DNA from: a virus
Taxonomy: Duplodnaviria > Caudoviricetes
Virus record (IMG/VR): IMGVR_UViG_3300048502_000185
Location: 26,988-90,987 of that record
DNA: 64,000 nucleotides
Direction: 5' to 3' (one strand)
Shown: in pieces, positions 1 through 51,317 of the stretch
Position numbering within the stretch: the first letter of the stretch is position 1
Layout: each line of letters opens with the position of its first letter
Made by a program: the position numbers and the translations under genes
The notes under the pieces: generated by a model
What the model was told of the DNA's origin: nothing
What the model saw: only the letters and a program-made list of their open reading frames with translations
Databases searched by the model: none

Positions 1-205
1 TTGATTAGCGATATAGGCATCAATAGCATACTTCAAATCGAAGACTTGAGATTCCGTCAATTGTAAATAAACTTCATATTTTTTAGCCAAATCTAAATTA
101 TATTGCCTTGCTTTAACCTTAGGCAATGAGGGTTTCTTACTAACGACATTTTTTGATTTATTTTTCATAACCAACCTAAATTAGTAATAGTGACCGATGG
201 GAAGG

Positions 206-511
206 CTACCAATTACCGCGCAAAATATAAAGACTTCTGCCCTTATACAATCCTGACAAAACGGCTATGTGATCAACATAATCATTATCGTGAGTTAAAT
301 ATACTTTGGTCCCATGACGGAGTAAGGCGAAACCAACTTCCGCAAGACATTGCTTTTCAGACTCGCCAGTTCCCCTGATACATACAAGAAAATCTGTAAT
401 TTGACTGCCAGTGAAAGCCCGTGTGTTTTGCTCCAAAACCAATTCATCCGCACTGGCAGTGATAGTACTGCTCATAATAGCAAGGACACAACCAATTAGA
501 ATACTTTTCAT
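206..511 (-). CDS. Secreted hypothetical protein
   Basis: N-terminal signal-peptide-like MKSILIGCVLAIMSSTITASA. Confidence 0.65.
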   Translation of the reverse strand: MKSILIGCVLAIMSSTITASADELVLEQNTRAFTGSQITDFLVCIRGTGESEKQCLAEVGFALLRHGTKVYLTHDNDYVDHIAVLSGLYKGRSLYILRGNW

Positions 512-618
512 TTACCACCTACTTAATACATTTGGATAAATGTAGCTAAAAACTATTACTGATAAGGCCATCAAATCCAATAACCCAAATAAAATGGTAT
601 AAAAAATTAAAACACTTT

Positions 619-960
619 TCACTTGGAGTCTTCCCAGCATTGGGCAAACAATGTTTGATAGTCGCCAGACTTGCTAAGGTCGCTGTTTTGAATATTCTTA
701 TAGCACACCAAAGCCCTCGCTTCCATCGAATGGAGCTTCTGATAGCTCCAAGAGCCCGTGGCAGACAGCGCCTGAATAGTATCAACGCTGGCTTGCCAGA
801 AGGCACTTGCAGCCACTTCCGCCTTGTCAGTGGTACACTCGGAGCGCAAGTCTTGCGCATGCGTTTGCTCGTCAGCCATCTGCGCGTGCATGGATGGATT
901 AGCGGCACAACCAGTGCCTAACATTAGGATACCGACAAAAGATAAAGTTGTAAATTGCAT
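619..960 (-). CDS. Putative lipoprotein
   Basis: Hydrophobic leader with lipobox LGTGC. Confidence 0.7.
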   Translation of the reverse strand: MQFTTLSFVGILMLGTGCAANPSMHAQMADEQTHAQDLRSECTTDKAEVAASAFWQASVDTIQALSATGSWSYQKLHSMEARALVCYKNIQNSDLSKSGDYQTLFAQCWEDSK

Positions 961-994
961 GTATTTATTCCTTGTTATAATATATGTTTGATTG

Positions 995-1372
995 TTAATT
1001 AGTAAGAATTAGTTCCAACTTATCTACACATTGAGAGGCAATATTCTTGTAGTCCTGAGTGAATTGAATATTGCTCACCACGATGTTATCGTAGCAAACG
1101 CGAAACTTGCTCAATGTAATTTTAGGAGATAAGTCCCTTTTATTGGAAATCCAATCCCATGCAACATCTGCTGATTGCATGGTATTCCTTTCAAAGTTCC
1201 AATATGAGCGCTGGTCTTCTTCAAATTTATTTGCGGCTACTTGCTCTTGTCGCCATTCAGCATTTGTTGGAAACTTTTCAGTTTTTGGATGCGATGCAAC
1301 AGGTGCTTGTGTTGTCGCACAACCAGAAACAGCAATCAAAATACTACCCAAAGAAAATACAATTGACTTCAT
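995..1372 (-). CDS. Putative lipoprotein
   Basis: Lipobox AVSGC; C-terminal C-Y...C pattern resembles the 619..960 ORF. Confidence 0.7.
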   Translation of the reverse strand: MKSIVFSLGSILIAVSGCATTQAPVASHPKTEKFPTNAEWRQEQVAANKFEEDQRSYWNFERNTMQSADVAWDWISNKRDLSPKITLSKFRVCYDNIVVSNIQFTQDYKNIASQCVDKLELILTN

Positions 1373-1449
1373 TTTAACTTTCCAACTCCTTTATTAGCAA
1401 GACATAAACATCATTCCAATTGAGCGAATCTCAATAAGACTTTCAAAAT

Positions 1450-1728
1450 CTAAAAGTGCAACGCTTTTGCTTCAAAGCCACGCTCTTTAAGATCTTCAAA
1501 AACAGATTCTACTGACCTTTCAGAACCCCACACGCTATCTCCCAGCTCTTCAAAATCTGATGGAAGAATATGTGCAATTTGAGGAGTTTGATCATTCAGA
1601 CATTGATTCTCATCATAGAAAGTTTTTTCTACAATACAAATATACACACTGTAATCTACATCACTTTCATCCACATAAACATGAAAATAATAATCTTGTG
1701 GCTTTGCTTCAGCAATTGCATTAGACAT
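1450..1728 (-). CDS. Hypothetical acidic protein
   Basis: ORF in co-directional cluster. Confidence 0.6.
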   Translation of the reverse strand: MSNAIAEAKPQDYYFHVYVDESDVDYSVYICIVEKTFYDENQCLNDQTPQIAHILPSDFEELGDSVWGSERSVESVFEDLKERGFEAKALHF

Positions 1729-1740
1729 TATATTTTCCTT

Positions 1741-1974
1741 TCACAGACCTCTAAAATCACCATTAACAGAAGACCACTGCTTGAAAACTTCTGGTGAATG
1801 ACGTCCATTACCATTCCTAACAAGTAGGATCGAATCAATCTCTTCTGGTTCCAAACGAGATTCTTCCTTCATATAAGCAAAGACAGTTGCAAGCCTTGCG
1901 TTAAAAACAGGGCGAACAATAATAGTAGTCAAATCAGAACCCGATGGTAAACCAACAATAATTGCAGTAAACAT
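1741..1974 (-). CDS. Hypothetical protein
   Basis: ORF with AGGA RBS in co-directional cluster. Confidence 0.6.
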   Translation of the reverse strand: MFTAIIVGLPSGSDLTTIIVRPVFNARLATVFAYMKEESRLEPEEIDSILLVRNGNGRHSPEVFKQWSSVNGDFRGL

Positions 1975-2084
1975 TTTAATGTCCTAAATAAAGTGTTGAA
2001 TGATATGCTAACGATATGATTATCGAAAGCGACTGACTAAAACTAAAAGAACAAGAACGAAACAAATATAAGCGGCTATACTAA

Positions 2085-2282
2085 TCATGCTGGAGAAACA
2101 TCCTCGGCACGAAAAGCCGTGCCAATATAATTAAGTGGACGTCTACCAACTAACTTGATACAATAAGATTGAACAGTATCAAATGTTGGTGGAGACATTC
2201 GCTTGGATATGACTATGCCATAGCCAAGCGTTGTGATGACACGATCACCAGTTTGGAATATCTTTCTCATGTTAGATTCCAC
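2085..2282 (-). CDS. Small hypothetical protein, SH3/KOW-like beta fold possible
   Basis: FQTGDRVITTLGYGIV pattern. Confidence 0.5.
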   Translation of the reverse strand: MESNMRKIFQTGDRVITTLGYGIVISKRMSPPTFDTVQSYCIKLVGRRPLNYIGTAFRAEDVSPA

Positions 2283-2285
2283 GAA

Positions 2286-2987
2286 TTAGTTAATCTCTTG
2301 CACACAGGTATAGCCGGGATAGGAGGTACTTGAGACGCCACCTTCTGGAGTTGGATTGCAGGAATAACCAGCCTGGATACAAACGCCGGGGCTACCTCCA
2401 CAATACAAACCGCCAGAACAATACCCAGCTCCTTGATACTCAAAAGCAGGATCATTGCTGCAAGGTTGATCCTCAAGAATAGGAATTAGACATTCATACA
2501 TACTATTTTGATTAGAATAAACGCAGTTATATCCTTTTTGGCAGGAAGAACTTGCATCACTTGCACCAGCATCAGAAGAAACTGGCGGAATACAAACAGG
2601 TGGAGAAGTTCCCGCTTCAACATCAGTTTGCCAAACAGCAAGAACCGGAGCAGCATCGACAACAACATCGGCAACAACATCGGCAACAGCAGCATCAACA
2701 ACGTCCGTTGTATTAGCGGCGTCAAAAACATCAGAAGTCAAAGCAGCATCAGTGCTATCAGCGGCTTCAACAATATCAGAAGCTTCTGCAACCACACTCG
2801 CTTCTACGGGCGTGATTATAGTTCCTGAGTCTGGAATATCGCCAGAATCTACAGATTCTCCATTAGCGCCAGATTCTCCGTTAGTGCCATCAACGCCATT
2901 TTTTCCGTCATGGCCTTGTCCTGGGAAAAGCGAGCAACCAGATGATGCGATCATTATTGATATCAGAGTTGCATATTTAATATTCAT
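2286..2987 (-). CDS. Cys-rich lipoprotein with Asp/Ala/Ser linker (paralog of 11204 and 12997 genes)
   Basis: Leader IMIASSGC-SLFPG shared with paralogs; DAG/DAS linker; Cys-rich C-terminus. Confidence 0.8.
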   Translation of the reverse strand: MNIKYATLISIMIASSGCSLFPGQGHDGKNGVDGTNGESGANGESVDSGDIPDSGTIITPVEASVVAEASDIVEAADSTDAALTSDVFDAANTTDVVDAAVADVVADVVVDAAPVLAVWQTDVEAGTSPPVCIPPVSSDAGASDASSSCQKGYNCVYSNQNSMYECLIPILEDQPCSNDPAFEYQGAGYCSGGLYCGGSPGVCIQAGYSCNPTPEGGVSSTSYPGYTCVQEIN

Positions 2988-3187
2988 TTTGAATTTTCTT
3001 ATGATAGTTATGGGTTTAGATACAGTCCTACAATTATTGGCATTTTATTTTGGCAACGCCATAACCAAGCAGTTATTTTCACCTCTACATCTTAGAAAGA
3101 GCACGACCCGATGGGACAGAAAATATGTCGATATTCGCTTAAAATTCAGCCAATCGCTGATATATTATCAGACGGAGGAAAGTTATC

Positions 3188-3884
3188 ATGAAGAAAATTT
3201 GTAAGGTAGAAGGTTGTCAGAAAAAACATTATAGTCTGGGGTATTGTCAAAATCATTTTAGGAACTTCAAAAATAGCGGAGACCCAATTTGGCATGGATA
3301 TCCAAAATTATCTTGTAAGGTACAAGGCTGTGCAAGAAAATATAAGGGGCTTGGATATTGTGAGCCACATCTTGATAGATTCAAGAATCACGGCGACCCG
3401 CTTGCAGATCAAAGCATCAAAATTATGAACCAATTTTCAGTTTGCACAATAACAGATTGTTATAAAGAACATTATTCCTTTGGTCTTTGTCAAGCCCATT
3501 ATGAACTTCAGAAACGAAACGGTGATCCAAATATCAGACAAAAAGCAAAAAATGGAGAAGGTAGGTTGGATGCCAAAGGCTATAAACTATTTAAAAAAAA
3601 ATGGTATTACTTATAGAGAACACCGATATGTTATGGAACAGCATATTGGACGAAAATTATTACCATTAGAAAATGTTCATCACAAAAATGGCGTTCGCGA
3701 CGATAATAGAATTGAAAATTTAGAACTATGGACTAAAGTTCAGCCGTGCGGAAAACGCCCAAAAGATTTGATTGTCTATGCCAAAGAGATATTCGCCCAA
3801 TATATGAAACCAGAAGATTTGGTTTCTTATGCAAAAGCATTACTTGCTAATCATGCATATGAAGAAGACGACCATCTTTGGTAA
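3188..3884 (+). CDS. HNH endonuclease with three N-terminal Cx4C..CxxH Zn repeats, split by a frameshift in an A9 run (3593-3601)
   Basis: ORF 3188..3616 has the C-x4-C...YC-x-x-H repeats; ORF 3480..3884 has HRYVME...[19 protein letters not shown]; removing one A fuses them. Confidence 0.8.
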
Positions 3885-3997
3885 GACACTATCTTAGTGA
3901 AAATTATGTTGGTGTTTTCTATTGGAGAACCACCGAACCAAGCAGCCCTATTTTTTTGACTGCCACATCCTATGTTCAGACACACGCACCGATGGGA

Positions 3998-4603
3998 CTA
4001 TCCACCTGAGAACACTGATTTAGTCTGCTTTGCCTTGACGCCCCAACTAATCGAAGAATTGCTAACGCCCATCTTCTTCATGAACGGGCTCTTACCAGCC
4101 TTCAAAATTCGGGCAAGTGCATCTTGCCTTAAAACGACCTCTGCCATATACTCGCCCTTGATGATAATCTTGGTGGAAAGCAACACGCCAAAGTAATCAG
4201 AGGCAGACGAACCGTCCGCAAGTTGCCGATCCAAGAAGCGCATACCGTCCTGGGGCATATCAAAAGGCTTCTCAATGACAAGATTGCCATCGGCAGAATA
4301 AATTGATGCCACATAATTCTTTGGAACCTTGTTGGTTTCTTTTGCTTTGTCAGCAAGAATCTTTGCTTCTGCTTTCTTAACTTCATTTTGAATCTGGTAG
4401 GAGAGAACAGCGGCTTTGATGTCTGAAAGAGCGGGGGTGGGCAAAAGTTCGCGAGCATCAAACCGATTGACTATTGAACCAACGACACCGAACATCTCAT
4501 CATTCATGAGGAATGATCTGTGATTGTTAATAAACTCCGAGGCAGAATTTGCTGCCTTGGTTCCAGCCTTGAAAAGAAACTTTTTTACTGACATATTCGA
4601 CAT
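3998..4603 (-). CDS. Hypothetical protein
   Basis: 201-aa ORF with GGAG RBS; stop followed by TCCCATC. Confidence 0.75.
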   Translation of the reverse strand: MSNMSVKKFLFKAGTKAANSASEFINNHRSFLMNDEMFGVVGSIVNRFDARELLPTPALSDIKAAVLSYQIQNEVKKAEAKILADKAKETNKVPKNYVASIYSADGNLVIEKPFDMPQDGMRFLDRQLADGSSASDYFGVLLSTKIIIKGEYMAEVVLRQDALARILKAGKSPFMKKMGVSNSSISWGVKAKQTKSVFSGG

Positions 4604-4817
4604 TTGTGGTCTCCTAAATTGTAAGAGGTACTGCTTGACTACTGATTGGAAGTTCGAACCCGATGGGAACCTTATCGTTTATTTTTCTTGCTAATCTTTA
4701 TATTTTTTAGATTGGCTCTGGTTGACTTCAAAGCGGTTTCCAAAAATTGATCAGTCTCTTTTTTTGAGAATTCGCACATAGTAAAAAAATCAAAATTATC
4801 TAATTCAGATGTCTTTT

Positions 4818-6726: not shown

Positions 6727-6733
6727 TTTCTTT

Positions 6734-14931: not shown

Positions 14932-15939
14932 TCAGGCAGCCTTTTCTTCTTTACCAAAATACTTGCACACTTCTTCTGCCGTGGTATATGCAACTTGAAA
15001 CCGTTCAAGATAACGAAAGCCATCCCGAATCAATGCGTCGCCCTTGCCAAGCAAGTTTTCGGCGCCAGTGGCATCCAAGACAACTTTGGAATCAATGTGA
15101 CTCGCAACCCGACAAGCAATGCGAGCAGGAAAGTTTGCCTTTATCGTGCCATTGATAATGTTCGTGCTTGGTCGCTGAGTAGTGAGAATAATATGAATTC
15201 GAGCAGCACGACACTTCTGAGCAAGTCTACAGATTAGAGTCATAAACTCGTTATCCTTGTCCTGCATAATTAGATCGGCAAACTCATCAATGATGACAAC
15301 GATGTGTTTCATCTCAGAAACTGGCTTGCCAACACGAATCAAATCATAGCGTGATTCCATCGCTTGCAATAGATTCTTGAGCAATTGAATTGTATTAGCA
15401 TACGTATAGCAAACTGGAATGTTGCAGGTTGCTTCATACTTCGCGAATTCAATCTGCTTGGGATCTGCCAAGTATAACTCCACATCGTTATACTGAAACA
15501 AGTTGGCGATGATAGTATGCAACAAGGTGCTCTTGCCCGAACCAGTTGTGCCGGCAATAATCATATGGGGATTCTTGGTAAGATCCATCCACATCTTTTG
15601 ACCATCAACTGTTTGACCGAGCAAACAATTAATTGCGCCATTGGGAATATCTTTGTTAGACATGTAATTAAAGAAACTAAGTTCGCTTGTTCTTGGGCCA
15701 GCAAATTCCAATCTAACTAAGCCTTCATTGTGCATGACCTTGACGGAAGGCTTGCAGGGGCTTTTGAGAGCCAAAGAGATCTCGTCGAGATACTTCTTGA
15801 TCGTATTGACCTTGGTGCTGGAATGCAGCTTCAGATCATAGAAAAAATAGTTATCGACCTGTTCAAAATTAACGCACTCTGCTTTGATGCCGAATGAGTT
15901 CAGGATAGAATCGAAGTTGGTTTGGTTATCAGTGTTCAT
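14932..15939 (-). CDS. FtsK/SpoIIIE-family ATPase (motor core only)
   Basis: PHMIIAGTTGSGKS Walker A; IVVIIDEFADL Walker B; RAARIHIILTTQRPS; IKANFPARIA; GAENLLGKGDAL. Confidence 0.92.
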   Translation of the reverse strand: MNTDNQTNFDSILNSFGIKAECVNFEQVDNYFFYDLKLHSSTKVNTIKKYLDEISLALKSPCKPSVKVMHNEGLVRLEFAGPRTSELSFFNYMSNKDIPNGAINCLLGQTVDGQKMWMDLTKNPHMIIAGTTGSGKSTLLHTIIANLFQYNDVELYLADPKQIEFAKYEATCNIPVCYTYANTIQLLKNLLQAMESRYDLIRVGKPVSEMKHIVVIIDEFADLIMQDKDNEFMTLICRLAQKCRAARIHIILTTQRPSTNIINGTIKANFPARIACRVASHIDSKVVLDATGAENLLGKGDALIRDGFRYLERFQVAYTTAEEVCKYFGKEEKAA

Positions 15940-15977
15940 AATAATATGATCCTATGAGGGCCCGATGGGAAACCCTA

Positions 15978-17127: not shown

Positions 17128-17955
17128 TTACAAATTTGCTAATCGTTTGGTTGTTATATTGATTGCCTCTTGACTTTCGTCTATTAGAATATAACCACGA
17201 TTGTGTTTTATTGCGGCAGCACCAGTTGTTCCGCTACCACAAAAGAAGTCTAAAATAGTGTCATTTTCATTAGAATGAATCTTCACAAGTCTTTCTAATA
17301 TTTGAATTGGTTTCTGTGTAGAATAACCAGTTCGCTCTTTACCATTTGTAGGAACTATTGTTTGCCACCAAACTGATGTTGGAGTCTTACCTCGTGCGGC
17401 TTTTTCTTTTCCAACTAAGCCTGGCGCCATATAAGGGAGTCTATCCATGGCATCATAATTAAATATATACTTTTTTGGGTCCATAACATACCACAATATG
17501 TTATCATGTTTAGCGGGCCACTTCTTTTTAGAACGAGCCCCAAAATCATAAGACCAAATAATCTCGTTCATAAAATGATCTCTACCGAGAAGGGCGTCTA
17601 AAGCCACCTTAATATAGTGAACCTCTCTATAATCTAAATGAACAAACAAACTTCCATTATCAGTCAAACAATGAATACTTGCTTCAATGCGAGACATTAG
17701 AAAGTTTTGGTAATCATCAAATGAATCATTGTAGCTTGACGAACTAATTTTTGTAGTGTTATATTGTTTACCACCAAAGCCAATTCGATCGCCCTCTTCA
17801 CCAGAATTAACTGCAACAGTTTTGATTCGATCCCTTTTCATTTGTTTACCTGAATTAAAAGGTGGATCAATATAGATCATTGTAGATATTTTATCAGGCA
17901 ACTTTGCCAATTCTTTTAGATTATCACCAAGCATAATTTGTTTTGTTAATGTCAT
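17128..17955 (-). CDS. DNA methyltransferase, N6-A/N4-C, beta class
   Basis: IYIDPPFN (motif IV) precedes ILDFFCGSGTT (motif I). Confidence 0.92.
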   Translation of the reverse strand: MTLTKQIMLGDNLKELAKLPDKISTMIYIDPPFNSGKQMKRDRIKTVAVNSGEEGDRIGFGGKQYNTTKISSSSYNDSFDDYQNFLMSRIEASIHCLTDNGSLFVHLDYREVHYIKVALDALLGRDHFMNEIIWSYDFGARSKKKWPAKHDNILWYVMDPKKYIFNYDAMDRLPYMAPGLVGKEKAARGKTPTSVWWQTIVPTNGKERTGYSTQKPIQILERLVKIHSNENDTILDFFCGSGTTGAAAIKHNRGYILIDESQEAINITTKRLANL

Positions 17956-22098: not shown

Positions 22099-22569
22099 TT
22101 ACCGCTTCAACGAAAGATTACAACCCGTCGCAACTGCATTAATGCAAACAAGATAGCCCAAACAAATCCAAGCAAGTGGATGGAGACAATCAGGCAGCGG
22201 CGAAACCATGACGCCTTCAATCAGCAAAACCCAGCCCAAGGCCTTCAGAGATGAATTGAAAGCAGCCTTGCACCAAGAATATACCGTAGGTGCCGAGAAG
22301 CACAAAGCCCCAATCACAAAGTAAGTTGGAACTTGTTCCAACAGATTTGCGTTCATATCAAGTGCATTATGGGCAACCAAAAATGCAGCTGTCGGCACAA
22401 CGCCACCGAGCAAAATACCGATTGTGGTAGCACTCAAATACTTGCGAGAGAATGCCATGCGCGTCTGTGCGACAACGCTTTTTGGAGATTGAATATTAAC
22501 CCGTCTTGCGACTCGAATACGTTTAGTTGACTCAGGTGCCGAATCGAGAAACTTATGTGCTGTGTTCAT
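22099..22569 (-). CDS. Multi-pass membrane protein
   Basis: About four hydrophobic segments. Confidence 0.7.
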   Translation of the reverse strand: MNTAHKFLDSAPESTKRIRVARRVNIQSPKSVVAQTRMAFSRKYLSATTIGILLGGVVPTAAFLVAHNALDMNANLLEQVPTYFVIGALCFSAPTVYSWCKAAFNSSLKALGWVLLIEGVMVSPLPDCLHPLAWICLGYLVCINAVATGCNLSLKR

Positions 22570-23411
22570 GGTGAATTACCTCTAACTATATTTAGATAAA
22601 ATGCCTCGATGGGAGTTTTGGCAACTTCACGTGCGAAGTTATGAGTGTCCCATGCACTTCGCGGATATATCTTTGAGAACTCATAAGAATATGATTGCTT
22701 CCGGGCGCTTGCTCGCAACTCTTCAATCGAAAGATATTCACGATTCAAACGAAGTTTTTCCAAACTTGCCCTAACAATCTTTCCAGACAACAATTTGAAT
22801 TGAACCGTAGTATTCTGTCGATTCGGCTTGTTATAGCCGTTAGCATAGAATTGCCCGAAAGACTTCCAATCAACAACTGATCCAAAAGTGCCAGCAGCAA
22901 GTTTCTCGTAAACCAACTTACCATTGGCATCTTTTAGTTTGCCGGTGATATGCAGTCCAGTTCCCTTGCAAGAAAAACATTCTCGCTTGTCAGCAGCATT
23001 CTTTGGATTGACCCAATTGCCAGAACCAGAACACTTGATGCAAGGTTCGCTAGTGGTCAACTGATATCGGCAATCTGCCGTAAGTCGAACCGACAGACCT
23101 TCGTGCAAGTTTTCAACATCAGGAGAATCAACTAATAGTTTATCAGCAGCAACCATGCGATTGAAAATATATTCTTCCAACCAAACGCGGGCTGATTCGA
23201 CAACTTCTCGAGTCGGCATCAAACAGACTTCATCATCAATGTCAACTGAAGAGACATTATTATTCCAGCCGATCATTGTCGGTGCAGCAAATCGCGTTGT
23301 GCCATACGTATGAGACTTCACCTCTTTGGTGGAATCATCATAATACGTGCACATAAAATCAGAATCGTTGTAGCCGTTAATCTCCCAGTCAGTTAGCAGA
23401 TACTTTGTCAT
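22566..23411 (-). CDS. Hypothetical protein with DnaJ-type Zn finger
   Basis: CIKCSGSG...CFSCKGTG. Confidence 0.75.
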   Translation of the reverse strand: MTKYLLTDWEINGYNDSDFMCTYYDDSTKEVKSHTYGTTRFAAPTMIGWNNNVSSVDIDDEVCLMPTREVVESARVWLEEYIFNRMVAADKLLVDSPDVENLHEGLSVRLTADCRYQLTTSEPCIKCSGSGNWVNPKNAADKRECFSCKGTGLHITGKLKDANGKLVYEKLAAGTFGSVVDWKSFGQFYANGYNKPNRQNTTVQFKLLSGKIVRASLEKLRLNREYLSIEELRASARKQSYSYEFSKIYPRSAWDTHNFAREVAKTPIEAFYLNIVRGNSP

Positions 23412-23463
23412 TTTAATTCTCCGTTATACTTATGTACTTGTCATGCCACCGATGGGAATCGGA

Positions 23464-28115: not shown

Positions 28116-28189
28116 GTTATTATGTCCTTGAACTTTCTTGTTTGAGATGATTGCTACGTTATTAGTTTCTATCTGTTGCCCGATGGGAC

Positions 28190-28528
28190 TTATTCTTTCT
28201 CTTCAAAGTCCTCATCGTTCGAGCCGTCATCGTCCTCGTCGAAAGCATAATCGGCGGGCCATTTGACACTCGAAAAGTAAACGATTGATCCAAGTCCCAA
28301 TGAATCCTCCGATGGGTTTAGTTCCGCAAGATCCGACAAGTCGTCAAAACATTCGTCTTGATTTCCGTCCATAATCGCTTGGGCAATAAGCACGCCAACT
28401 TTGAAAGAAGACACTCCTCGTTTAAGATTGATGCCAACACATCCACGACCATACATTCCGCGCCCACTATAGTATCGCGCTGTAAAGCCGGCGTCTTCGA
28501 TTGCCTTGATAAGTTTCATTGCGTTCAT
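28190..28528 (-). CDS. Conserved phage hypothetical protein
   Basis: RYYSGRGMYGRGCVG...DSLGLGSIVYF. Confidence 0.7.
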   Translation of the reverse strand: MNAMKLIKAIEDAGFTARYYSGRGMYGRGCVGINLKRGVSSFKVGVLIAQAIMDGNQDECFDDLSDLAELNPSEDSLGLGSIVYFSSVKWPADYAFDEDDDGSNDEDFEEKE

Positions 28529-28800
28529 TTTATTTACCTTGTTCCTTAGTTTTATACTTGTGCCTGATGGGACTTAGACAGTATACCGATGATGGCACAC
28601 TTGACAGTTATTGTGTTCAACGTTCGCACTTGTAATCATACTAGCAGGAATCAAACCGCCATGTTCTTTTCCGCCACACTTATGACAAGTGGCGCCATAG
28701 CCTTTGTTATGATAAAGCGGGTTATGCTTGAGCTTTGCCGCGACTTGTTTGAGCCAATTGCTTGTCATGTTATAATCTTTCTTTTACAGTATCTGATGGG

Positions 28801-29037
28801 TTATTCATAGCTCTCTTCGGAAGAAAAACCAGCCGAAAGAACGAGATTCGTATAAATATCGCGACCGTTCTCGGTCAACGACCGCCAACCAAAATTGCCC
28901 GATGGGCTAAAGCCGGCAAGTTCCGCACGACCCATGTAGGCGTATTCCTTAGAGGATTGACCAGCATGGTACAAAGAACCAAACAACCAATACGCAGACA
29001 AAATATCAAATCTATCAAAATACATTTTGTTATCCAA
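28801..29037 (-). CDS. Hypothetical protein (paralog of 31150 gene)
   Basis: F(D/N)RFDI..AY...LT(E/D)NGR.IY shared. Confidence 0.7.
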   Translation of the reverse strand: MDNKMYFDRFDILSAYWLFGSLYHAGQSSKEYAYMGRAELAGFSPSGNFGWRSLTENGRDIYTNLVLSAGFSSEESYE

Positions 29038-29076
29038 CTTTCTATTATTAGAAAATAAATTAAAACTTGATGGGAA

Positions 29077-30732: not shown

Positions 30733-30748
30733 TGCAATTCCTATACCA
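30733..30748 (-). promoter_or_regulatory. sigma54-type promoter
   Basis: TGGTATAGGAATTGCA (GG-N10-GC). Confidence 0.6.
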
Positions 30749-30787: not shown

Positions 30788-31100
30788 CCTGTACAGTAAG
30801 ATATCTAAGATTAAATATCCCATCAGAGAACTACTTAAAAAATACTGAGATCTCTTCTTCGGTCTCTTTCTCTTCTCCTCTCGGTTTGAAAAAGAAAAAA
30901 AAAACTAAAACTTAAAATATATCGGATTAATTTTCGACTCCTATACGCACGCGTGCGGCTCACCCATCCTTCCTTAGGTTTCCTTCCCAAACTTTTCGGG
31001 AGCTTCCCGCATCCAAGCTCAAGCATAACGGGCCACCTATCCTACAATCTAATTTAAACTTTGCGCGTTTCTAAAAACGGTCTGGCATAGCCAAACGACA
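30788..31100 (+). repeat. Dispersed non-coding element, copy A
   Basis: Shares AATACT(G/A)AGATCTCTTC..CTCCTCTCGGTT, CTATCCTACAATCTAATT and CATAGCC blocks with copies at 42.7-43.1 kb and (inverted) 55.6-56.0 kb. Confidence 0.75.
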
Positions 31101-36690: not shown

Positions 36691-36706
36691 TACAAAAGCC
36701 GTGCCA
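36691..36706 (-). promoter_or_regulatory. sigma54-like promoter (degenerate -12)
   Basis: TGGCACGGCTTTTGTA. Confidence 0.45.
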
Positions 36707-37773: not shown

Positions 37774-38259
37774 TTAGACCCAGTTATATTTAAGATAGTT
37801 AATATTATCTAAGAAAAAAGTAGGAGAGACATCTACCTCTCCTACCCAGTTATATTTAAGATAGTTAATATTATCTACGCACACAACCCTACCACTCGCA
37901 ATGGCTCTGGCTAGTAATGCTTCTACGTGATCTTTTGCGCCCTTCAGAAAGGAAAGCTCGCCAGTAGCATGATCATTACTACATTGATTGATAGCAGAGA
38001 AAATGTCCTCGTCAACAGCGATGGCAACATAGCTCCAATCTTGGGGCTCCCAATATTGGAGCTCCCAATCTTGCGACTCGATGGGCTTCTCTGGCTCTTG
38101 TGCTTTCTGGTCTCTGACCTTCTGTAGGTGGGAACACACCACATCGATGGGCTTCTCGGGTTTTTGTGCTTTCTTTACAGCCTTGAGCGATTCAGCAAAG
38201 GCAATAATCTCGTCAACGGTTCCAGTTACAGTGATATTCATTGTCTTATCGCCTTTCAT
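37774..38259 (-). CDS. Hypothetical protein with duplicated C-terminus
   Basis: DNINYLKYNWV occurs twice because of a local tandem duplication. Confidence 0.6.
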   Translation of the reverse strand: MKGDKTMNITVTGTVDEIIAFAESLKAVKKAQKPEKPIDVVCSHLQKVRDQKAQEPEKPIESQDWELQYWEPQDWSYVAIAVDEDIFSAINQCSNDHATGELSFLKGAKDHVEALLARAIASGRVVCVDNINYLKYNWVGEVDVSPTFFLDNINYLKYNWV

Positions 38260-38544: not shown

Positions 38545-38943
38545 TTACGCCGTCAGTTGTTTCGGCATGTTGTCAGGATGAACCTGAACTGTCATACGAA
38601 AACTCCTATAGTAGTCATGGTAAACTACCGTAAGCAACGCATGAGTTATCGGAATGCCCCCAACCGCCTGGTCATTGTTCGACCCAGCATGACAGGCCCA
38701 TTCGCCCGAGCTCAAGTGCAACGGATGGGAAAAGGTCATCGTGCGCAAGTCCAAAGAATATCTTTTGCCACATTCGCCGTCATGCAAGACTGCGGGATGT
38801 ACAGCGTCGGTAAACGACACACTTTTAGGACATCGCTGGGAAGTACCAGTGTCTGCTTTGATTGTGGGCCATAGGCTCTTGAACCCCGGCAACAAGGCTT
38901 CTACGTCGGACATCTTTGAACATTTGAAAGTGTTATTGGACAT
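38545..38943 (-). CDS. Hypothetical protein
   Basis: GGGAG RBS, downstream of the sigma54 site. Confidence 0.7.
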   Translation of the reverse strand: MSNNTFKCSKMSDVEALLPGFKSLWPTIKADTGTSQRCPKSVSFTDAVHPAVLHDGECGKRYSLDLRTMTFSHPLHLSSGEWACHAGSNNDQAVGGIPITHALLTVVYHDYYRSFRMTVQVHPDNMPKQLTA

Positions 38944-39005
38944 GTATCTCCCGCCTTTATGTTTGCCGATGGGTTTTGAATTTACGGCATATAGATTGCA
39001 GACAT

Positions 39006-39021
39006 AGCAAAACCCGTGCCA
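39006..39021 (-). promoter_or_regulatory. sigma54-type promoter (full consensus)
   Basis: TGGCACGGGTTTTGCT = TGGCACG-N4-TTGCW. Confidence 0.8.
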
Positions 39022-39034
39022 ACCAACTTTAAAA

Positions 39035-39060
39035 CAAAAAGAAAGGGGTTATGCCCCCTT
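39035..39060 (-). terminator. Intrinsic terminator
   Basis: AAGGGG/CCCCTT stem plus T-tract. Confidence 0.6.
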
Positions 39061-39327
39061 CCTTTTACTTCCATAGCCAACCTGTTTCAATCCAATAAAG
39101 AATCGTTGCAACGAATTGCTCGGGGGACTTATCCGCCCAAAAGGCATCGTTTGCCATTCCCATAGGAAGCTTTTCATTTATAAGGCAATCAGCAGGAATA
39201 GTGGAACTTTCCCACTCATCAAGAACTTTATAAGAAACGCCGACATTGTTTAGTCTTTCAACGACTTCCGTCAACCAATCGTTGATTGTATAACCCAAAC
39301 CGTTCTTCATGATATTCTCCCTATATG

Positions 39328-40972: not shown

Positions 40973-41165
40973 TAACTACTTTTTGCTGATGGGGACTTGC
41001 GATCCGTGGCGTGTGAAGGGGAACTAGGATGGTATTATGATAGCCGCTAGGCTATCGTCTAATCCACCTTCACACGCCAAGGTCTCTATCGCCAACTATA
41101 TTGGGGGATATCAAACTGATGGGAACTCTTGCCTGCATATACGCGTTGGTATTGATCTTGCAATT

Positions 41166-41181
41166 AGCAAAACCCATGCCA
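41166..41181 (-). promoter_or_regulatory. sigma54-type promoter
   Basis: TGGCATGGGTTTTGCT. Confidence 0.78.
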
Positions 41182-41196
41182 CCCAGTTCAAAGAAT

Positions 41197-41234
41197 AAAA
41201 AAAAGAGCCAGCCTAACATTCGGTAGGCTGGCTC
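41197..41234 (-). terminator. Intrinsic terminator
   Basis: 11-bp stem GAGCCAGCCTA/TAGGCTGGCTC plus T8. Confidence 0.8.
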
Positions 41235-41358
41235 CTTAGGGATTACCGCGAATAATCCCTAGTCGGTAAGCCGAACGAAGCATCCCGACTTCCCAAGTAA
41301 GTGCGTCCCTTACCTGGGGGTATGTATACCATGCGAAACTATGCCCCGATGGGAACCC

Positions 41359-45084: not shown

Positions 45085-45111
45085 AAAAACAAGGGAGCGA
45101 ACTAGGCTCCC
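45085..45111 (-). terminator. Intrinsic terminator
   Basis: GGGAGC/GCTCCC stem plus TTGTTTTT. Confidence 0.65.
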
Positions 45112-45566: not shown

Positions 45567-45594
45567 ATCAAAGGATTAGAATCTCGATGGGCGA

Positions 45595-45849: not shown

Positions 45850-45881
45850 TTATGAGCAATATCAATTACTTGATGGGATAA

Positions 45882-46511: not shown

Positions 46512-47029
46512 TGTCGGGAACCTCATGATATGATTGAGATACTTGGCTCGATGGGTTTTAGAACCGACAATGGCACTTAGTATCCTTAGGACTTGCAGGC
46601 CAGCCGCTCGCAAACCTACGCTTTTCTTCTGCCCAGTCTGCCCGAAGAGCTCTCCACATATGGAAAGTGTCATCAAAGGACACACGGTTTTCGACTGCCA
46701 TAAACCATCCCGCTATAAAAAGAGTGGGAATCTCCTCATCAGACGACGAAACCGAATCAACCGGCGGACACGTAAACTTTTCGCTGCTCATCTTGAATAC
46801 CTCAATTATGTTGGGGATGCTTGGCTCGATGGGTTTCTGTCAGCCATTGACGTCAAGGTCGGCACGCCAAGAGTTTTTATAGTCTTTGGCACGCTTGTCT
46901 TGCTTTGCTTTGAAGGTCTGGGCTTTGCCAGTGCCATTGACAATCATGGCATAGGCGACGCTGTTACGAGGGACTGGCTTCTGTTTGCGTTTCATGGTAG
47001 TTATGATAACCTTTTATTCACTGATGGGA

Positions 47030-47248
47030 TCAGGCCTTAGTATAATAATCGAACCAAGATCCAGACCGACTTGTGCGACGTTTGCTCTCATCCGAGGTAC
47101 AGAATCTGCTAGAGGTATTAATGCTGTTACAATGTAGTTGGGCAACCAGCAAAGAGACATTCCAAAAGATAGTCCTGCGACATCCCGAACGGTGAAAAAG
47201 CCTAATGATATTATAGGTTTGCATGATATCCTCGTTTATTGACGTCAA
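47030..47248 (-). CDS. Small hypothetical protein (paralog of 25298 gene)
   Basis: See 25298. Confidence 0.7.
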   Translation of the reverse strand: MTSINEDIMQTYNIIRLFHRSGCRRTIFWNVSLLVAQLHCNSINTSSRFCTSDESKRRTSRSGSWFDYYTKA

Positions 47249-47310
47249 AGTAATGCCTGATGGGAAGCAGCTTGGGTCTTATTGGTGCCTGGGACCAGAT
47301 CTTGATATAT

Positions 47311-47326
47311 TGCACAACCCATGCCA
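47311..47326 (-). promoter_or_regulatory. sigma54-type promoter
   Basis: TGGCATGGGTTGTGCA. Confidence 0.7.
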
Positions 47327-47340
47327 AGTGCAAGATATAT

Positions 47341-47366
47341 AAAAAAGAGCCCCTACTACGGGGCCC
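47341..47366 (-). terminator. Intrinsic terminator
   Basis: GCCCC-GTAGTA-GGGGC-TC-T6; identical copy at 48121. Confidence 0.75.
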
Positions 47367-47401
47367 TTATCACACATGTCCGAACCTAACCTACAAGAAG
47401 C

Positions 47402-47986
47402 TTATTCACCCACGTCTCTATCGTGTTTCGGTGACCCGAAACGGGCGGAATTGTGGGCAGAGGTAGCCACGTCAATCAAGAATTCCACACACTTCTCCTT
47501 GCTATTCTTGACATAGGAGACCTTGAGATACAAGTGATCACAATGTAAGCCTTGTTCGGTGTGACTGTCAGCCTCGACTAGCAAACTACTCGTTCCCGCA
47601 TCAAGATTCACATCGAACCCCACCGTGGCATCCTTCGGCAGAAGTGAGAGAATGTTAACAAGACGCTCACGAGGACAACCAGTAAGATACCAGAAACCAC
47701 TGGTAGGACGGAAACCTTCATCGTATCGCATGAAAGTCAGCCCAGTAAGGCTTTGCTCCCCCGTACGACGACTCGTATGTCCGTTGCTCACATAGCCCGC
47801 GATGCCTTCCAAGGTGCGCGCCTCTTTATCGGCACGGTCTTTGCGAGCACGAATCTCGAAGATAAAAGAGTCACTGTAGGATTCACGGTCCAAGGTAGGC
47901 TTCCCATGGAGACTCAGCGCATCATACCCATACTTGGCCACATCGAGCAATTGCTTCGCCGTCGTTTTACCGTGGAGATCGTTCAC
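47402..47986 (-). CDS. Hypothetical protein
   Basis: 194-aa ORF with AAGGA RBS. Confidence 0.7.
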   Translation of the reverse strand: MNDLHGKTTAKQLLDVAKYGYDALSLHGKPTLDRESYSDSFIFEIRARKDRADKEARTLEGIAGYVSNGHTSRRTGEQSLTGLTFMRYDEGFRPTSGFWYLTGCPRERLVNILSLLPKDATVGFDVNLDAGTSSLLVEADSHTEQGLHCDHLYLKVSYVKNSKEKCVEFLIDVATSAHNSARFGSPKHDRDVGE

Positions 47987-48089
47987 TTTGATATCCTTCT
48001 TTCTTGTTTTGCCGCTTATAATATAGGAAAATTATTCCTGATGGGAGCTTGGTCTGGTTCTGGTGCCTTGGGACCAGATCTTGATATAT

Positions 48090-48105
48090 TGCATAACCCA
48101 TGCCA
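48090..48105 (-). promoter_or_regulatory. sigma54-type promoter
   Basis: TGGCATGGGTTATGCA. Confidence 0.7.
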
Positions 48106-48120
48106 AGTGCAAGTCCCATA

Positions 48121-48147
48121 AAAAAGAGCCCCTACTACGGGGCCCTT
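48121..48147 (-). terminator. Intrinsic terminator
   Basis: Copy of the 47341 terminator. Confidence 0.75.
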
Positions 48148-48160
48148 ATCTTACATGTTC

Positions 48161-48373
48161 CTACTTGACCTTGACAACCTTACCGTTCACCATGGTCACG
48201 GTAGCATACCACTTGTGCGGCTCGGGATAATGTGGGCCCGAGATAAACTCTTGACCATCACGGACTGGCGCACCCATTCCGGGGGCATAGATCGTGACTT
48301 CTTTGCCAGCGGCAACGGCTTCTTTGAGGGCCTTCTTGGACTTGAAGTTGATATCGGTGTACATTGGGAACAT
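48161..48373 (-). CDS. Conserved small phage protein
   Basis: NFKSKKALKEAVAAG...GPHYPEPHKWYA. Confidence 0.75.
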   Translation of the reverse strand: MFPMYTDINFKSKKALKEAVAAGKEVTIYAPGMGAPVRDGQEFISGPHYPEPHKWYATVTMVNGKVVKVK

Positions 48374-48430
48374 CCTTTCGGGGAGGGGAACAATTATGGG
48401 GTAAAGTTAGGTCAGGATGGGAAGATTGGG

Positions 48431-48643
48431 TTAGTAGGGCAGATTAAAGTTAGGATCTTCTTGATCCCTAAAAGTGCCATCATTCCACTTATATACCTCG
48501 ACATGAAAGGATATCGTTATCTGCCCACGATAGTTTACATTGTCGTAAACGGTGCAATTCGGGTCCTTCGCAGCGAGCCAAGCCTTTTGATCGCCTAGAA
48601 ACAAGTTGTCTAATTCCTTTTGATTCTTGTATAGAATGTTCAT
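48431..48643 (-). CDS. Hypothetical protein
   Basis: GAGG RBS; post-stop TCCCATC. Confidence 0.6.
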   Translation of the reverse strand: MNILYKNQKELDNLFLGDQKAWLAAKDPNCTVYDNVNYRGQITISFHVEVYKWNDGTFRDQEDPNFNLPY

Positions 48644-49111
48644 CTTAGAACCTCAATTATGTGGGTGCATATACCTATCATAACACGCCACGTGGCACGG
48701 TCAAGTCCCCTCGTCACTTTTTTTGGCAGACTCGCCAGTTACCGACGAGAGCGAATGCGCGATCGAGGTCGACCCAGTCCGCGTTACGCAGCACGTCTCG
48801 TGACGCCTCGGGAAGGTCGGGAAGGCCTCCTCCCTCCAAGGCGGTGTGAAAAGAAGGCTTATCGAGTCTGCCCAGCGCGCGAAGTGTTCTCAGCGTCCCA
48901 AGAACCTCGCGGTCTTGAAGCACCACCTTCATCGCCCGCAGTGCAGTCAGTTCCGCCCGTCGTGTCGTCGTCGTCTTCATATAATTCAAAAAACGTAGAT
49001 TGGAAACGGGAGTTTCCAATATTATCCCGAAGGGATAATCTAGGGGTAAAAAGTATATTAGATCAGGAGTAAGTTTTTCACATACTCCTGATTACTTTTT
49101 TATCTATTATC

Positions 49112-49411
49112 CTACTTCGTGCAGGTCATCTTGGCAGCGATGACAACCGTGTAGCCGTTGTCGTCAAGTGTTACCACGTTATATCCCTGATGTAAGATAA
49201 GCTTTCCACCGTCGCACAATGTAGTCGCGGCGAATCTTTCGCCTAAGTCTTCCGTGGCCATGGCAGTTGCCTCGTCAAGGTCGGTCGAAGTTCCAGCACC
49301 AGCATAATCCTGGTGAAACACTCTGGTAGTGAAGTCTGCCGAAACCGGGGAAGACGTCCCGAGAATAGGAACCGTGGCAAGAAGGGACGAGATAATGATC
49401 AATGCTTTCAT
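49112..49411 (-). CDS. Secreted protein (family with 45882 and 50045)
   Basis: Signal peptide; F.QDY.G.G.S...A...C...C. Confidence 0.7.
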   Translation of the reverse strand: MKALIIISSLLATVPILGTSSPVSADFTTRVFHQDYAGAGTSTDLDEATAMATEDLGERFAATTLCDGGKLILHQGYNVVTLDDNGYTVVIAAKMTCTK

Positions 49412-49502
49412 TGGGATAGCCTCAATTAGGAGGTATAAAGTAAAACCTGATGGGAGTTCAAAGGGAATAAAAAGAAGCCTGTTGGCCAGAAGATTGCTGT
49501 AT

Positions 49503-49518
49503 AGCAAAGATCATGCCG
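49503..49518 (-). promoter_or_regulatory. sigma54-type promoter
   Basis: CGGCATGATCTTTGCT. Confidence 0.7.
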
Positions 49519-49532
49519 CATACAATGTACAT

Positions 49533-49559
49533 AAAAAAAAAGGCCCCAATTAAGGGGCC
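49533..49559 (-). terminator. Intrinsic terminator
   Basis: GGCCCC/GGGGCC stem plus T9. Confidence 0.75.
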
Positions 49560-49581
49560 CAGATTATTCATCCTCAGACCT

Positions 49582-49776
49582 TCACGGTCTCCAGCAAGGT
49601 GTAAGTATAAGTTGCTGGCCAATAGCCGCGTCGATCTTCTGGATATCCAGCTCGAGCTTACGCCCCACGTTCAACGGGCAGCGGTACAGGTTCGCGTCCA
49701 AGAGGGCCTGCACCTTAATCGCCCGCAGTTCAGTCAGTTGCGCCCGTCGTGCCGTCGTCATTGTCATGGTGGTCAT
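49582..49776 (-). CDS. Small hypothetical protein
   Basis: MTT..RRA.LTELRA.K start also seen within the 48714..49019 ORF. Confidence 0.55.
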   Translation of the reverse strand: MTTMTMTTARRAQLTELRAIKVQALLDANLYRCPLNVGRKLELDIQKIDAAIGQQLILTPCWRP

Positions 49777-49853
49777 ATATATTATATAAAAGTAAAACCT
49801 GATGGGAAGTTAGGGTATTGGGATAAAAAGGATGGCTTGAAAGTTGCAAAGAA

Positions 49854-49869
49854 AGCAAGAATTATACCA
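49854..49869 (-). promoter_or_regulatory. sigma54-type promoter
   Basis: TGGTATAATTCTTGCT. Confidence 0.6.
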
Positions 49870-50044
49870 AACCAAAACATTCATTAGAAACTAGATGTCA
49901 TCCAAAGAGGTTTTGAAAACCACCCAAAAAACCGCGTCCGAAAAAACCCAAGCAATATCAACGAGTTATAAAAAGCAAAACTCATTTTCGCCGTAGGCGG
50001 AATTCAGTTTTTCCAGACTAGTGTGTTGGAGGTAAGTTTTTTGA

Positions 50045-50371
50045 TTACTTTGACTCCGCAGAGACGGTGTCTGAGCAGGTCGCCTGAAACGTCATTGTAA
50101 CGGTGTAAGTTCCCTGACCCTGAGTCATTGACACGATGACCTTGTGAGATACTTCGTAGCCGTTGTGACAGGGGTGGTCACTGTCAGCACCCCTTGACAT
50201 AAGGGATTGTGCCACATTAAGCGCAGCATGAATGTTTGATTCTCTAAAGTCATCAGATGTCGCCTTGCCAATGTAGGTTTCGGTCCAGGACTTTGAGGCA
50301 AGTGCAGTGCCAGCCAACGAAAGAATGGCAAGGGCGGCAAACATTCCGAGGGTTTTTTTGGGGGAGTTCAT
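50045..50371 (-). CDS. Secreted protein (family with 45882 and 49112)
   Basis: Signal peptide ALA-SKSWTETYIG.ATS. Confidence 0.7.
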   Translation of the reverse strand: MNSPKKTLGMFAALAILSLAGTALASKSWTETYIGKATSDDFRESNIHAALNVAQSLMSRGADSDHPCHNGYEVSHKVIVSMTQGQGTYTVTMTFQATCSDTVSAESK

Positions 50372-50399
50372 AATATATGGGCATAATAAAGAATAGGAT

Positions 50400-51317
50400 G
50401 GGAAGTCAAGGTTGTTCTTTGAAAATTAATAGTAATCAAGGTGGGTATTTGTAAGTTCCGCGCGGGAAGTGTATGTTTTTTGAGAAAATTATGGGGAATT
50501 GAAAGGGTTTGGGAGAATTGGTATGGATTGTGCAAGGAATGCAAGAAGGATGCCAAGGGGAAAGAATTGAGGGAAAATTGAGGGGGGGGTTTTTTGGTGG
50601 GGTGTTTTGGCGGGATGGTTTTGGGTTGGGGAGAAGGGGGTTGATGGGAGGGCGGACGAATTGGCTCCCCAAATAGGGTAAAATGGTATTGTAATGGTAT
50701 TGGAATAGTATTGGGTAATAGAGTTGGAGTAAGATCAGGATAAGATCCTAATCATGTTTACATCAGTTTTTAAGCAATGTAGATAACCCAATAAGTAATC
50801 GTTATGGCTAATATATAATAGCAATTAGAACTACAATATTCAATAACAAATACATAAGATATTTACTATCCTATTAGACAAAAGTTAGATAATCATCATA
50901 TACCTATAAATAAAGGTAATTAATATATATTTTTTATATAATTTATATGCATAATCTAATATAAATAATTAGATATAAACGGCAAGTTATTCTACTAACA
51001 CTTTCACACAATTTTTAGTGTAAATAATAAGCGAATATAATATCATATAGAACGGATAAAACAAACCAAATATAATCACAAATAATCATAACAGGCATTT
51101 AGAACTTCAAATTACTCATTAGGGCATTATTGAATCTTCATAAAGGGCAATTAGAATAATTTTAGAGTGCGAAAGCACAAAAAACTTGATGATAAAGTCT
51201 GTTTTGGAGCAAAACTAGGATGAAAAACGGGTTTTTGATTTTAGAGCAATTTGAAAAATTAGTAAGATGATTTTTGCGGTTGAGCTAAGGAATTTGACAT
51301 ATGGTCATATATGGTCA
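50400..51317. other. Long non-coding block: G-tract segment followed by very AT-rich segment (candidate origin or domain boundary)
   Basis: No credible ORF; G-runs at 50580-50660; A/T-rich 50700-51250. Confidence 0.45.

Follow-up and report, generated by a model that had tools for sequence, protein, structure and literature searches.

What does a short DNA word do when it is repeated along an island of small phage genes and is nearly always written in the same direction? This question is raised by a 64,000-nucleotide stretch of viral DNA (hereafter the window), which comprises bases 26988–90987 of the 90,987-bp IMG/VR virus record IMGVR_UViG_3300048502_000185, labelled G000 here. An original prediction, made from the letters of this window, described a TCCCATC(G/A)G motif standing after the stop codons of accessory genes and offered three roles for it: (a) a recombination or cassette-exchange site, (b) an mRNA signal at each translation stop or (c) a polar DNA-binding site. 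We found that the motif is indeed a gene-punctuating, strand-polarised signal under selection, but the description of it as a post-stop element did not hold, because the word belongs to the gene that follows. Judging from the sequences, we assign a probability of roughly 0.4 to the reading that the word is a directional start or loading signal, most likely a minimal promoter. The record itself is ~20% complete (CheckV), and its protein relatives at 57–65% identity lie on uncultured phage contigs of 210–481 kb, indicating that it is a piece of a megaphage genome; no close nucleotide relatives were found in the GenBank phage collection.

A one-way word in an island of small genes

Nearly all genes of the window are carried by the − strand, and the consensus of the word on this gene strand is (T)TCCCATC(G/A)(G/A)G, which appears as GATGGG on the + strand. 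More than 110 copies of GATGGG against a handful of CCCATC had been claimed for the + strand; we counted 122 GATGGG on the + strand and 5 on the − strand of the window, where dinucleotide shuffles gave 27.4 ± 5.6 for both strands summed, and the ratio over the whole 91-kb contig was 130:5. In the island (27–78 kb of the record), the gene strand held 120 copies compared with 9.7 expected under a second-order Markov model, and CCCATC was the most strand-asymmetric hexamer by a wide margin. The chance expectation given earlier, 6–7 copies per strand in 40 kb, was of the right order, and the density of one copy per 300–400 bp proved to be real and stronger than stated, with one copy per 275 bp in the dense part.

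The island (190..50650, − strand) consists of small co-oriented genes and has a GC content of 0.41–0.49, compared with 0.28–0.36 in the flanks. Its 12 kb of non-coding DNA holds 74 copies of the word. As had been noticed, the word becomes scarce elsewhere: only two copies lie beyond 50.7 kb of the window, none lies in the AT-rich arrays of MORN-like genes, and the word is upstream of only one of the 94 genes outside the island.

The word belongs to the downstream gene

The word is often close to a stop codon, as predicted: 44 of the 120 copies begin 0–9 nucleotides (nt) past the stop of an open reading frame (ORF) of at least 50 codons, a position for which the background predicts 5.2. However, when the distances to starts and stops were compared, the distance to the next ATG showed a hard floor of 24 nt, which argues against a post-stop element. 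In addition, the 3′ untranslated region (UTR) between stop and terminator lacked the word in eight of the nine terminator-followed genes examined, so that a signal at each translation stop (role b) is not supported. By our own gene calls, the distances from word to ATG in G000 pile up at 24–27 nt; 45 of the 62 genes in the dense part (73% slot occupancy) have the word 18–75 nt upstream, and every one of the 20 inter-gene gaps of 45–60 nt contains it. Its absence before the terminators and its presence in these gaps tie the word to the following gene. The adjacency to stops is explained by tight gene packing, since in the relative L010 consensus sigma70 promoters sit equally close, 0–10 nt past the previous stop; tight packing alone therefore suffices to place a per-gene promoter directly after a stop.

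Individual junctions illustrate this arrangement. At four consecutive junctions (28182..29074, − strand), the word (28182–28187, 28566–28571, 28795–28800 and 29069–29074) lies 0–2 nt past the stop and 26–66 nt before the ATG. Before the gene for a 281-aa protein (22566–23411), a copy at 23449..23458 (− strand) lies 7 nt past the upstream stop, leaving 39 nt to the ATG. The copy that precedes the FtsK/SpoIIIE-like ATPase gene (15964..15969, − strand) is separated from the ATG by 24 nt.

Between 30 and 50 kb of the window, the gene strand carries about nine strong intrinsic terminators, and the units that they separate begin in the same order: terminator, a sigma54-like site (TGGCAY-N5-TTGC), 32–48 nt, the word, 10–60 nt (mostly at least 24) and, where a gene start could be called, the ATG. 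That the word follows sigma54 promoters had been claimed before, and eight post-terminator −24/−12 sites do have the word 32–48 nt past the −12 element; the first gene after each of these sites carries the word in its 5′ UTR, with no preceding stop. A further upstream sigma54-like site at 36706 has the word 16 nt after it, and the site at 30748 also carries one. At the boundary 38968..39066 (− strand), a terminator (39066–39037) is followed by the sigma54-like TGGCACGGGTTTTGC (39021–39007), the word (38973–38968) and, 24 nt on, an ATG at 38943; a second boundary (41118..41237, − strand) shows the identical order (terminator 41237–41202, sigma54-like site 41181–41167, word 41123–41118). Two more boundaries lie within 47259..48147 (− strand), with terminators at 48147–48124 and 47368–47345, each followed by a sigma54-like site and then by the word (48045–48040 and 47264–47259, respectively), and neither 3′ UTR ahead of these terminators holds the word. 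The hairpins of this pair are identical over 24 nt and 780 bp apart, with near-identical sigma54-like regions downstream, and look like a duplicated unit boundary.

The sigma54-like sites belong to a conserved palindromic composite, TGGCAY-N5-TTGC(A/T)-N3-5-TGCAA-N5-RTGCCA, in which two −24/−12-like elements face each other; its N5 spacers are non-complementary and thus form no hairpin. Copies of the composite were located at 39007–39021, 41167–41181, 36692–36706, 30734–30748 and 49855–49869 of the window (− strand), as well as in L031, in L034 and at 248–288 kb of G003. The composite is conserved after terminators in G000 and in its relatives G002, G003 and G004, and in the three relatives it is followed by the local word. 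No phage sigma54 or enhancer-binding protein was detected by Pfam in these four records.

Two standard promoter assignments for the word itself were rejected. It lacks the GG −24/GC −12 pattern of a sigma54 promoter, and the sigma54-like sites are separate, 16–48 nt upstream. As a −35 box of a sigma70 promoter, the copies at 24–25 nt would leave no room before the ATG, and those in G002 and G003 have no −10 partner. A weak ATAAAT-like peak was seen 17–18 nt after the word in ~40% of the gap copies of G000, and ordinary sigma70-type promoters were not enriched in the island.

A single orientation relative to transcription, a place in short gaps beside gene starts and stops, and a position downstream of promoters are also what a stoperator-like operator would show. 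At such a site a phage repressor, in the manner of gp71 of Cluster A mycobacteriophages, would bind the word and block the elongating polymerase, so that the island would be silenced at some stage; the word also differs among related phages, as described below. We nevertheless consider this explanation unlikely. Exact spacing of 24–25 nt to the ATG is foreign to stoperators, and the word of G003, at 6 bp, is short for a specific repressor, of which very many molecules would have to be present to fill 160 sites in 40 kb. Moreover, inverted stoperators would be harmless, which leaves the purge of inverted copies (see below) unexplained, and no repressor was identified.

Exactness, in-gene copies and mutual exclusion

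The word is close to exact, given that variants with one mismatch were not enriched and were even depleted on the gene strand. A hairpin reading of CCCATCGGG was rejected, as the positions flanking the word are not complementary. The earlier remark that the word is squeezed into coding frames stood up to a codon-aware null: the confident coding sequences of G000 hold 30 copies, in all three frames, compared with 7.9 ± 2.3 after synonymous-codon shuffling, an enrichment of ~4-fold. Two such copies (38080..38151, − strand), both read Pro-Ile, lie inside the gene for a 161-aa protein (37774–38259).

Selection within genes is also evident in G003 (433 kb, CheckV 97%). The word of this relative is a bare CCCATC with no conserved flank beyond T or A at −1; it occurs 246 times forward and 4 times in reverse, and it is dense, at 41–53 copies per 10 kb, in an island whose GC content is 0.45–0.52, compared with 0.30 elsewhere. 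Most of these copies lie inside genes. The ORFs of the island contain 83 copies compared with 21 ± 3.9 expected, evenly spread along the genes, and a single helicase ORF holds 12. Over the full span G003:C1:240000-325000, GC content is 0.38–0.52 within a backbone of 0.29–0.32; the islands of G000 and G004 likewise lie 10–15 GC points above their flanks.

In the dense parts of both G003 and G000, no two copies are <50 bp apart, although exponential spacing of equal mean would give 33 and 16 such gaps, respectively. The minimum spacing in G000 is 55 bp (P < 5e-5), with a coefficient of variation of 0.65. This mutual exclusion argues for a bulky reader with a footprint of ~50 bp.

These findings bear on an explanation at the RNA level, in which CCCAUC in the 5′ leader and body of the island messages would be a site for a phage endoribonuclease or for an RNA-binding translational regulator, possibly linked to the phage-encoded ribosomal protein bS21. 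The endoribonuclease would cut the messages into monocistronic mRNAs or time their decay, for which T4 RegB is a precedent. The word is exact and is transcribed, downstream of the sigma54-like sites, its polarity tracks the transcripts, its minimal distance to the ATG is fixed and lies outside the ribosome-binding region, and bS21 homologues occur in G001, G002 and G003. A site in the 5′ UTR is possible, yet we hold it to be doubtful. Cleavage at copies enriched 4-fold in ORFs, with 12 in one helicase gene, would destroy the messages; the 50-nt exclusion between sites is not explained, nor does this explanation account for the purge of GAUGGG from the mRNAs of an entire 430-kb genome, and G001 has bS21 but no word. 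The bS21 homologues are L057 (G001:94870-95028), L058 (G002:192482-192640) and L059 (G003:76688-76846); their frames, of 112–126 aa, are longer than the matched Pfam S21 domain model (55 positions).

Inverted copies are purged

The inverted word is almost erased from G003. In its 343-kb backbone, one inverted copy was seen compared with 58 expected under the Markov model, and in the 281 kb of backbone ORFs one was seen compared with 37.0 ± 5.3 after synonymous shuffling, whereas all 29 other permutations of the same letters had observed/expected ratios of 0.7–1.6. The forward word was also absent from 80–220 kb of G003, where 4.9 copies were expected. In G000, the inverted word is present five times compared with 23 expected over the contig (5 versus 14.2 in the island and 0 versus 9 outside). 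Two of these five copies, at 30819–30824 (in a full TCCCATCAG context) and 30963–30968 (+ strand), are situated where no protein gene was called. The inverse of CCCATC is not purged from G001, G002, G004 or G005, in which this hexamer is unbiased; the purge follows each lineage's own word. One forward CCCATC in the backbone of G003 (G003:C1:373516) ends 2 nt before the 5′ end of a tRNA-like sequence, as judged by eye, a position that fits a start directly after the word.

One pressure that could produce such a purge is escape from host restriction, if a Type III or Type ISP enzyme of the host recognised CCCATC. Enzymes of these types cut only between head-to-head sites, so that a genome with sites in one direction is immune, with the EcoP15I sites of T7 as a precedent. 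The nearly complete loss of one orientation over 430 kb in G003 and its depletion in G000 agree with this explanation, as does the lack of a purge in relatives with other words, which would be expected for different hosts. As the whole explanation it is improbable, because it leaves several facts unaccounted for: the forward word is enriched 12- to 16-fold, is restricted to the island, occupies the pre-gene slot and follows the spacing rule, and words of 11–14 nt stand in the same slot in G002, G004 and L007 (see below). Restriction evasion could add to the pressure exerted by a positive function, accounting for the purge only.

A purge would also be expected if an inverted site started or blocked replication forks head-on, that is, if the machine acting at this polar DNA site were not an RNA polymerase and the word were, for example, a strand-specific nick site or a Tus/Ter-like one-way barrier. 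In the nick variant, the 3′ ends left at nicks could serve as primers for co-directional replication or as loading points for a sliding clamp. A polar DNA-level site in general, role (c) of the original prediction, is compatible with all data. In favour of a machine other than a polymerase, the word is exact, one-stranded and regional, lies on the coding strand both within and outside genes, and is subject to 50-bp exclusion. Such a machine is nonetheless the less expected outcome and remains, in our view, somewhat doubtful, given that the 24–25-nt ATG spacing, the 73% pre-gene occupancy and the backbone copy before the FtsK-like gene of G003 (see below) tie the word to genes, that its density is at least 10-fold above that of known nick motifs, and that no nickase or Tus-like protein was identified.

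Relatives carry their own words in the same slot

Besides G003, three relatives share a long word, GCTCCCATTCACGG. In G002 (481 kb, complete, CheckV 100%), it takes the form (G)CTCCCATTCAC(gG), with 60 forward and no reverse copies, and is dense at 420–452 kb; the 340-kb contig L007 has the long word as in G002, and so does G004 (210 kb), where a looser pattern, YTCCCATYS, gave 60 forward and 7 reverse matches, dense at 145–177 kb. The reverse copies of G004 were considered as a test of gene orientation and set aside, as they are chance antisense matches inside forward genes; no informative inverted gene block exists. No polar word was found in the sequenced parts of G001 and G005, although an FtsK-like ATPase is present in both.

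The spacing to the start codon is common to these words. TCCCAT-N25-ATG is the modal arrangement in G000, G002, L007 and L008, and the copies in G003 pile up at the equivalent 23–27 nt after CCCATC. Even outside the island, in the AT-rich backbone of G003, the orthologue of the FtsK-like gene is preceded by a single TCCCATC, whose TCCCAT is exactly 25 nt from the ATG. The relatives have switched the whole set of words while retaining the TCCCAT core. Such a genome-wide switch at orthologous junctions argues for a trans-acting reader and against recombination scars.

The slot occupied by the word is a promoter slot in more distant relatives. Ahead of the 281-aa gene and its orthologues, the element is TTCCCATCGG in G000 and GCTCCCATTCACGG in L004 and L007. 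At the same place, L009 has a pair, TTCGTATT ... CAGTATAG, that resembles a bipartite phage-type promoter, whereas L010 and L011 have canonical promoters of the TTGACA-N17-TATAAT type: cccTTGACA-N17-TGTATAAT in L010 and TTGACA-N17-TATTGT, 6 nt ahead of the ATG, in L011. In L009 (L009:4880-13100), an oriented element, TTTCCGTATT-N16-CAGTATAG(TGATGTGAG), stands 25–37 nt upstream in the four copies that have a visible downstream ATG, and from its sequence this bipartite element looks like a phage-specific promoter.

Role (a), in which recombination or cassette exchange at the word would shuffle accessory genes, as at T4-type PeSL (promoter-early stem-loop) cassettes or integron attC sites, becomes very unlikely in the light of these comparisons. 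It is true that the word stands on either side of small accessory genes without known function, that leaders of the G002 type, from the word through the first codons, look related between different genes, as copied modules would, and that a methylase gene pair lies between direct repeats of 17 bp that contain the word. However, by a rough estimate, 130 copies with a consensus of 11–12 nt should give a few identical 17-bp pairs by chance. The word has no inverted-repeat or stem-loop structure, and neither its enrichment inside genes together with the purge when inverted, nor the switch of the entire copy set between relatives, is expected of such a site.

An exact, short, polar word that also occurs within genes and has a G-rich complement may recall Chi or KOPS, which would here be read by the host RecBCD/AddAB or by the FtsK-like translocase of the phage. 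The FtsK/SpoIIIE-family ATPase is in fact conserved, at 63–65% identity in G000, G001, G003 and G005. We regard this possibility as very slight. The word is confined to 10–15% of the genome (a 40- to 80-kb island of 433 kb) and keeps a fixed relation to start codons; the ATPase is present in G001 and G005, whose sequenced parts contain no polar word, and the 11- to 14-nt words of the relatives are too long for Chi. In addition, the ATPase of the window (335 aa; 14932..15939, − strand) matched only the motor domain in Pfam, and no gamma (KOPS-reading) domain was listed.

A proposed start or loading signal for one class of genes

The position rules, the exclusion between copies, the purge of inverted copies and the switching of words point to an autonomous, orientation-dependent DNA signal linked to individual genes. 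We propose that it would be read on DNA as a cis-signal at which a bulky machine loads and from which it moves in the direction of the genes. In the likeliest case, which the homology of its slot with promoter slots supports, the word would be a minimal promoter or initiator for a transcription apparatus specific to the phage or modified by it, and we infer that the machine would be an RNA polymerase whose transcripts begin at or just past the word. This apparatus would serve one expression class, composed of the GC-rich accessory island and a few scattered genes such as that of the FtsK-like ATPase. Each small gene would have its own copy, placed as far upstream as packing permits, just past the previous stop, and the floor of 24–25 nt would represent the shortest workable 5′ leader for ribosome binding. 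Copies inside genes may feed the genes downstream, whereas antisense transcription would start from inverted ones; these, like copies in genes of the wrong class, would be harmful and be removed by selection. The word would then drift between lineages together with its reader. Each rival explanation conflicts with at least one of the properties described above and is given a lower weight.

Several observations weigh against a promoter. The bare hexamer of G003, without flanking conservation, is very little information for one, and the near-exactness of the word is more typical of the words of nucleases and translocases. In the post-terminator units examined, a sigma54-like site already lies upstream of the first copy, so that the word is not needed there as the sole promoter. 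Pfam searches of the essentially complete G002 and G003 found neither a T7-like RNA polymerase nor an Rpb1/Rpb2-type polymerase, and no sigma54, enhancer-binding protein or NusG-like protein. Finally, the small sigma factor of these phages is 93% identical between the long-word genomes and a wordless one, and 75% identical in the hexamer genome.

This sigma factor is encoded by four relatives (L006:1327-1956, L060:1327-1956, L005:1327-1956 and L061:1336-1956). It has ~209 aa, with regions 2 and 4, and is 93% identical among G001, G002 and G004, compared with ~60% for other shared proteins; this conservation is unusually strong. It was rejected as the reader, since its recognition helices are invariant and do not co-vary with the word. 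A NusG/RfaH-like factor, as in an ops-like model, was likewise discarded, as Pfam found no such protein in the sequenced records.

More tentatively, we suggest that in this clade of bS21-encoding megaphages the one-way word of 6–14 nt may be the complete recognition signal for a directional machine that is yet unrecognised. Candidates are a transcription initiator of non-canonical type and an activator, based on nicks or a clamp, that acts with the host sigma54 polymerase. If so, the word has shaped a whole 430-kb genome, being written forward every 200–275 bp in one GC-rich island, even within genes, and erased everywhere in the inverted direction.

How phages with genomes of 400–500 kb schedule the expression of their hundreds of small accessory genes is essentially unknown. 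In at least five uncultured megaphages, an entire expression class is marked by one short word, which provides a computable marker for these genes and, through co-variation or pull-down, a way to find the reader protein. It is also a rare case of a single hexamer on which selection acts strongly in both directions, positive and negative. A reader that proved to be a new initiator or a nick-based activator would imply a new mechanism of transcription; if the word is a promoter for a known type of factor, it would still provide a useful rule for annotating the early or accessory regions of megaphages.

Contig ends and neighbouring genes

A SMART IIA primer in inverted orientation is present at both ends of the contig (G000:C1:1-25 and 90963-90987, the latter being 63976–64000 of the window). 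We rejected these adapters as evidence of transcript ends because they lack GGG or oligo-T tails, which points to random-primed amplification; the contig ends are amplification adapter and not genome termini. An alternative genetic code was also rejected, as no stop-codon reassignment lengthened the ORFs. Beyond the island, MORN-like (HREDGPA) paralogs whose junctions are tight or overlap form a word-free, AT-rich array over 51318..58255 (− strand). The MORN-like repeat proteins are built of WYLNGKLHREDGPA units ending in KAFW, and their long arrays, at 51318–58255 and 61138–63910 (− strand), are both free of the word. An N6/N4 DNA methyltransferase gene (275 aa; 17128–17955, − strand) lies in a low-density part of the island.

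Comparison with known systems

In the literature searched, we found no published description of the word in this context or of this combination of features. Its closest counterparts are the phage-specific, gene-by-gene promoter words of large phages, such as the phiKZ-type early words, the T4 late word TATAAATA, read by gp55, and the Lu11-type ACTGTAAATA. They are likewise short, one-way and upstream of small genes, serve one expression class, are lineage-specific and have no −35/−10 pair. In contrast to those systems, no matching polymerase or sigma factor was found here, the word is a bare hexamer in one relative, sigma54-like sites coexist with it, and selection inside genes, 50-bp exclusion and a genome-wide purge of the inverted word are present.

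The PeSL elements of T4-type hyperplastic regions are also repeated regulatory elements that punctuate small accessory genes, but the word described here has 6–14 nt and involves neither a sigma70 early promoter nor a stem-loop; the terminators are separate and are followed by sigma54-like sites. The stoperators of Cluster A phages (the asymmetric 13- to 14-bp sites of L5 gp71) are similarly co-oriented, found in gaps at gene boundaries and variable between related phages, whereas the word is much shorter, ~5- to 10-fold denser, fixed in its spacing to the ATG and purged when inverted. Integron attC sites consist of imperfect inverted repeats (R''/L''-L'/R'), unlike the word, which has only 6–14 conserved nt and no inverted-repeat partner.

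The EcoP15I sites of T7 (CAGCAG) resemble the word in being a hexamer that is frequent in one direction and absent in the other throughout the genome. The near absence of one orientation that marks Type III/ISP bias is seen here as well (246:4 in G003; 5 versus 23 expected in G000), but such bias should follow no positional rule, and the forward word is 12-fold enriched in the island, where it is concentrated in pre-gene slots, which it shares with the 11- to 14-nt words of the relatives, and obeys a spacing exclusion. Strand-specific motifs associated with nicks have been described in T5, tf and Rembedalsseter-type phages; one of them, WACTRTGAC, is exact and regional, confined to one strand, mostly the coding strand, and found both inside and outside genes, and its function is unknown (PMC11780129). 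These nick motifs number ~13 per 45 kb, with no link to start codons reported (PMC11780129), compared with one copy per 200–275 bp here.

Per-gene promoter words, stoperators, PeSL, nick motifs and the EcoP15I sites of T7 are thus known singly, and each shares some features with the word. The combination that was not found in the literature searched is that of a conserved TCCCAT core with lineage-specific extensions, in a GC-rich island punctuated by terminators and sigma54-like sites, with copies inside genes and 50-bp exclusion between copies, and with the inverted hexamer erased throughout the genome.

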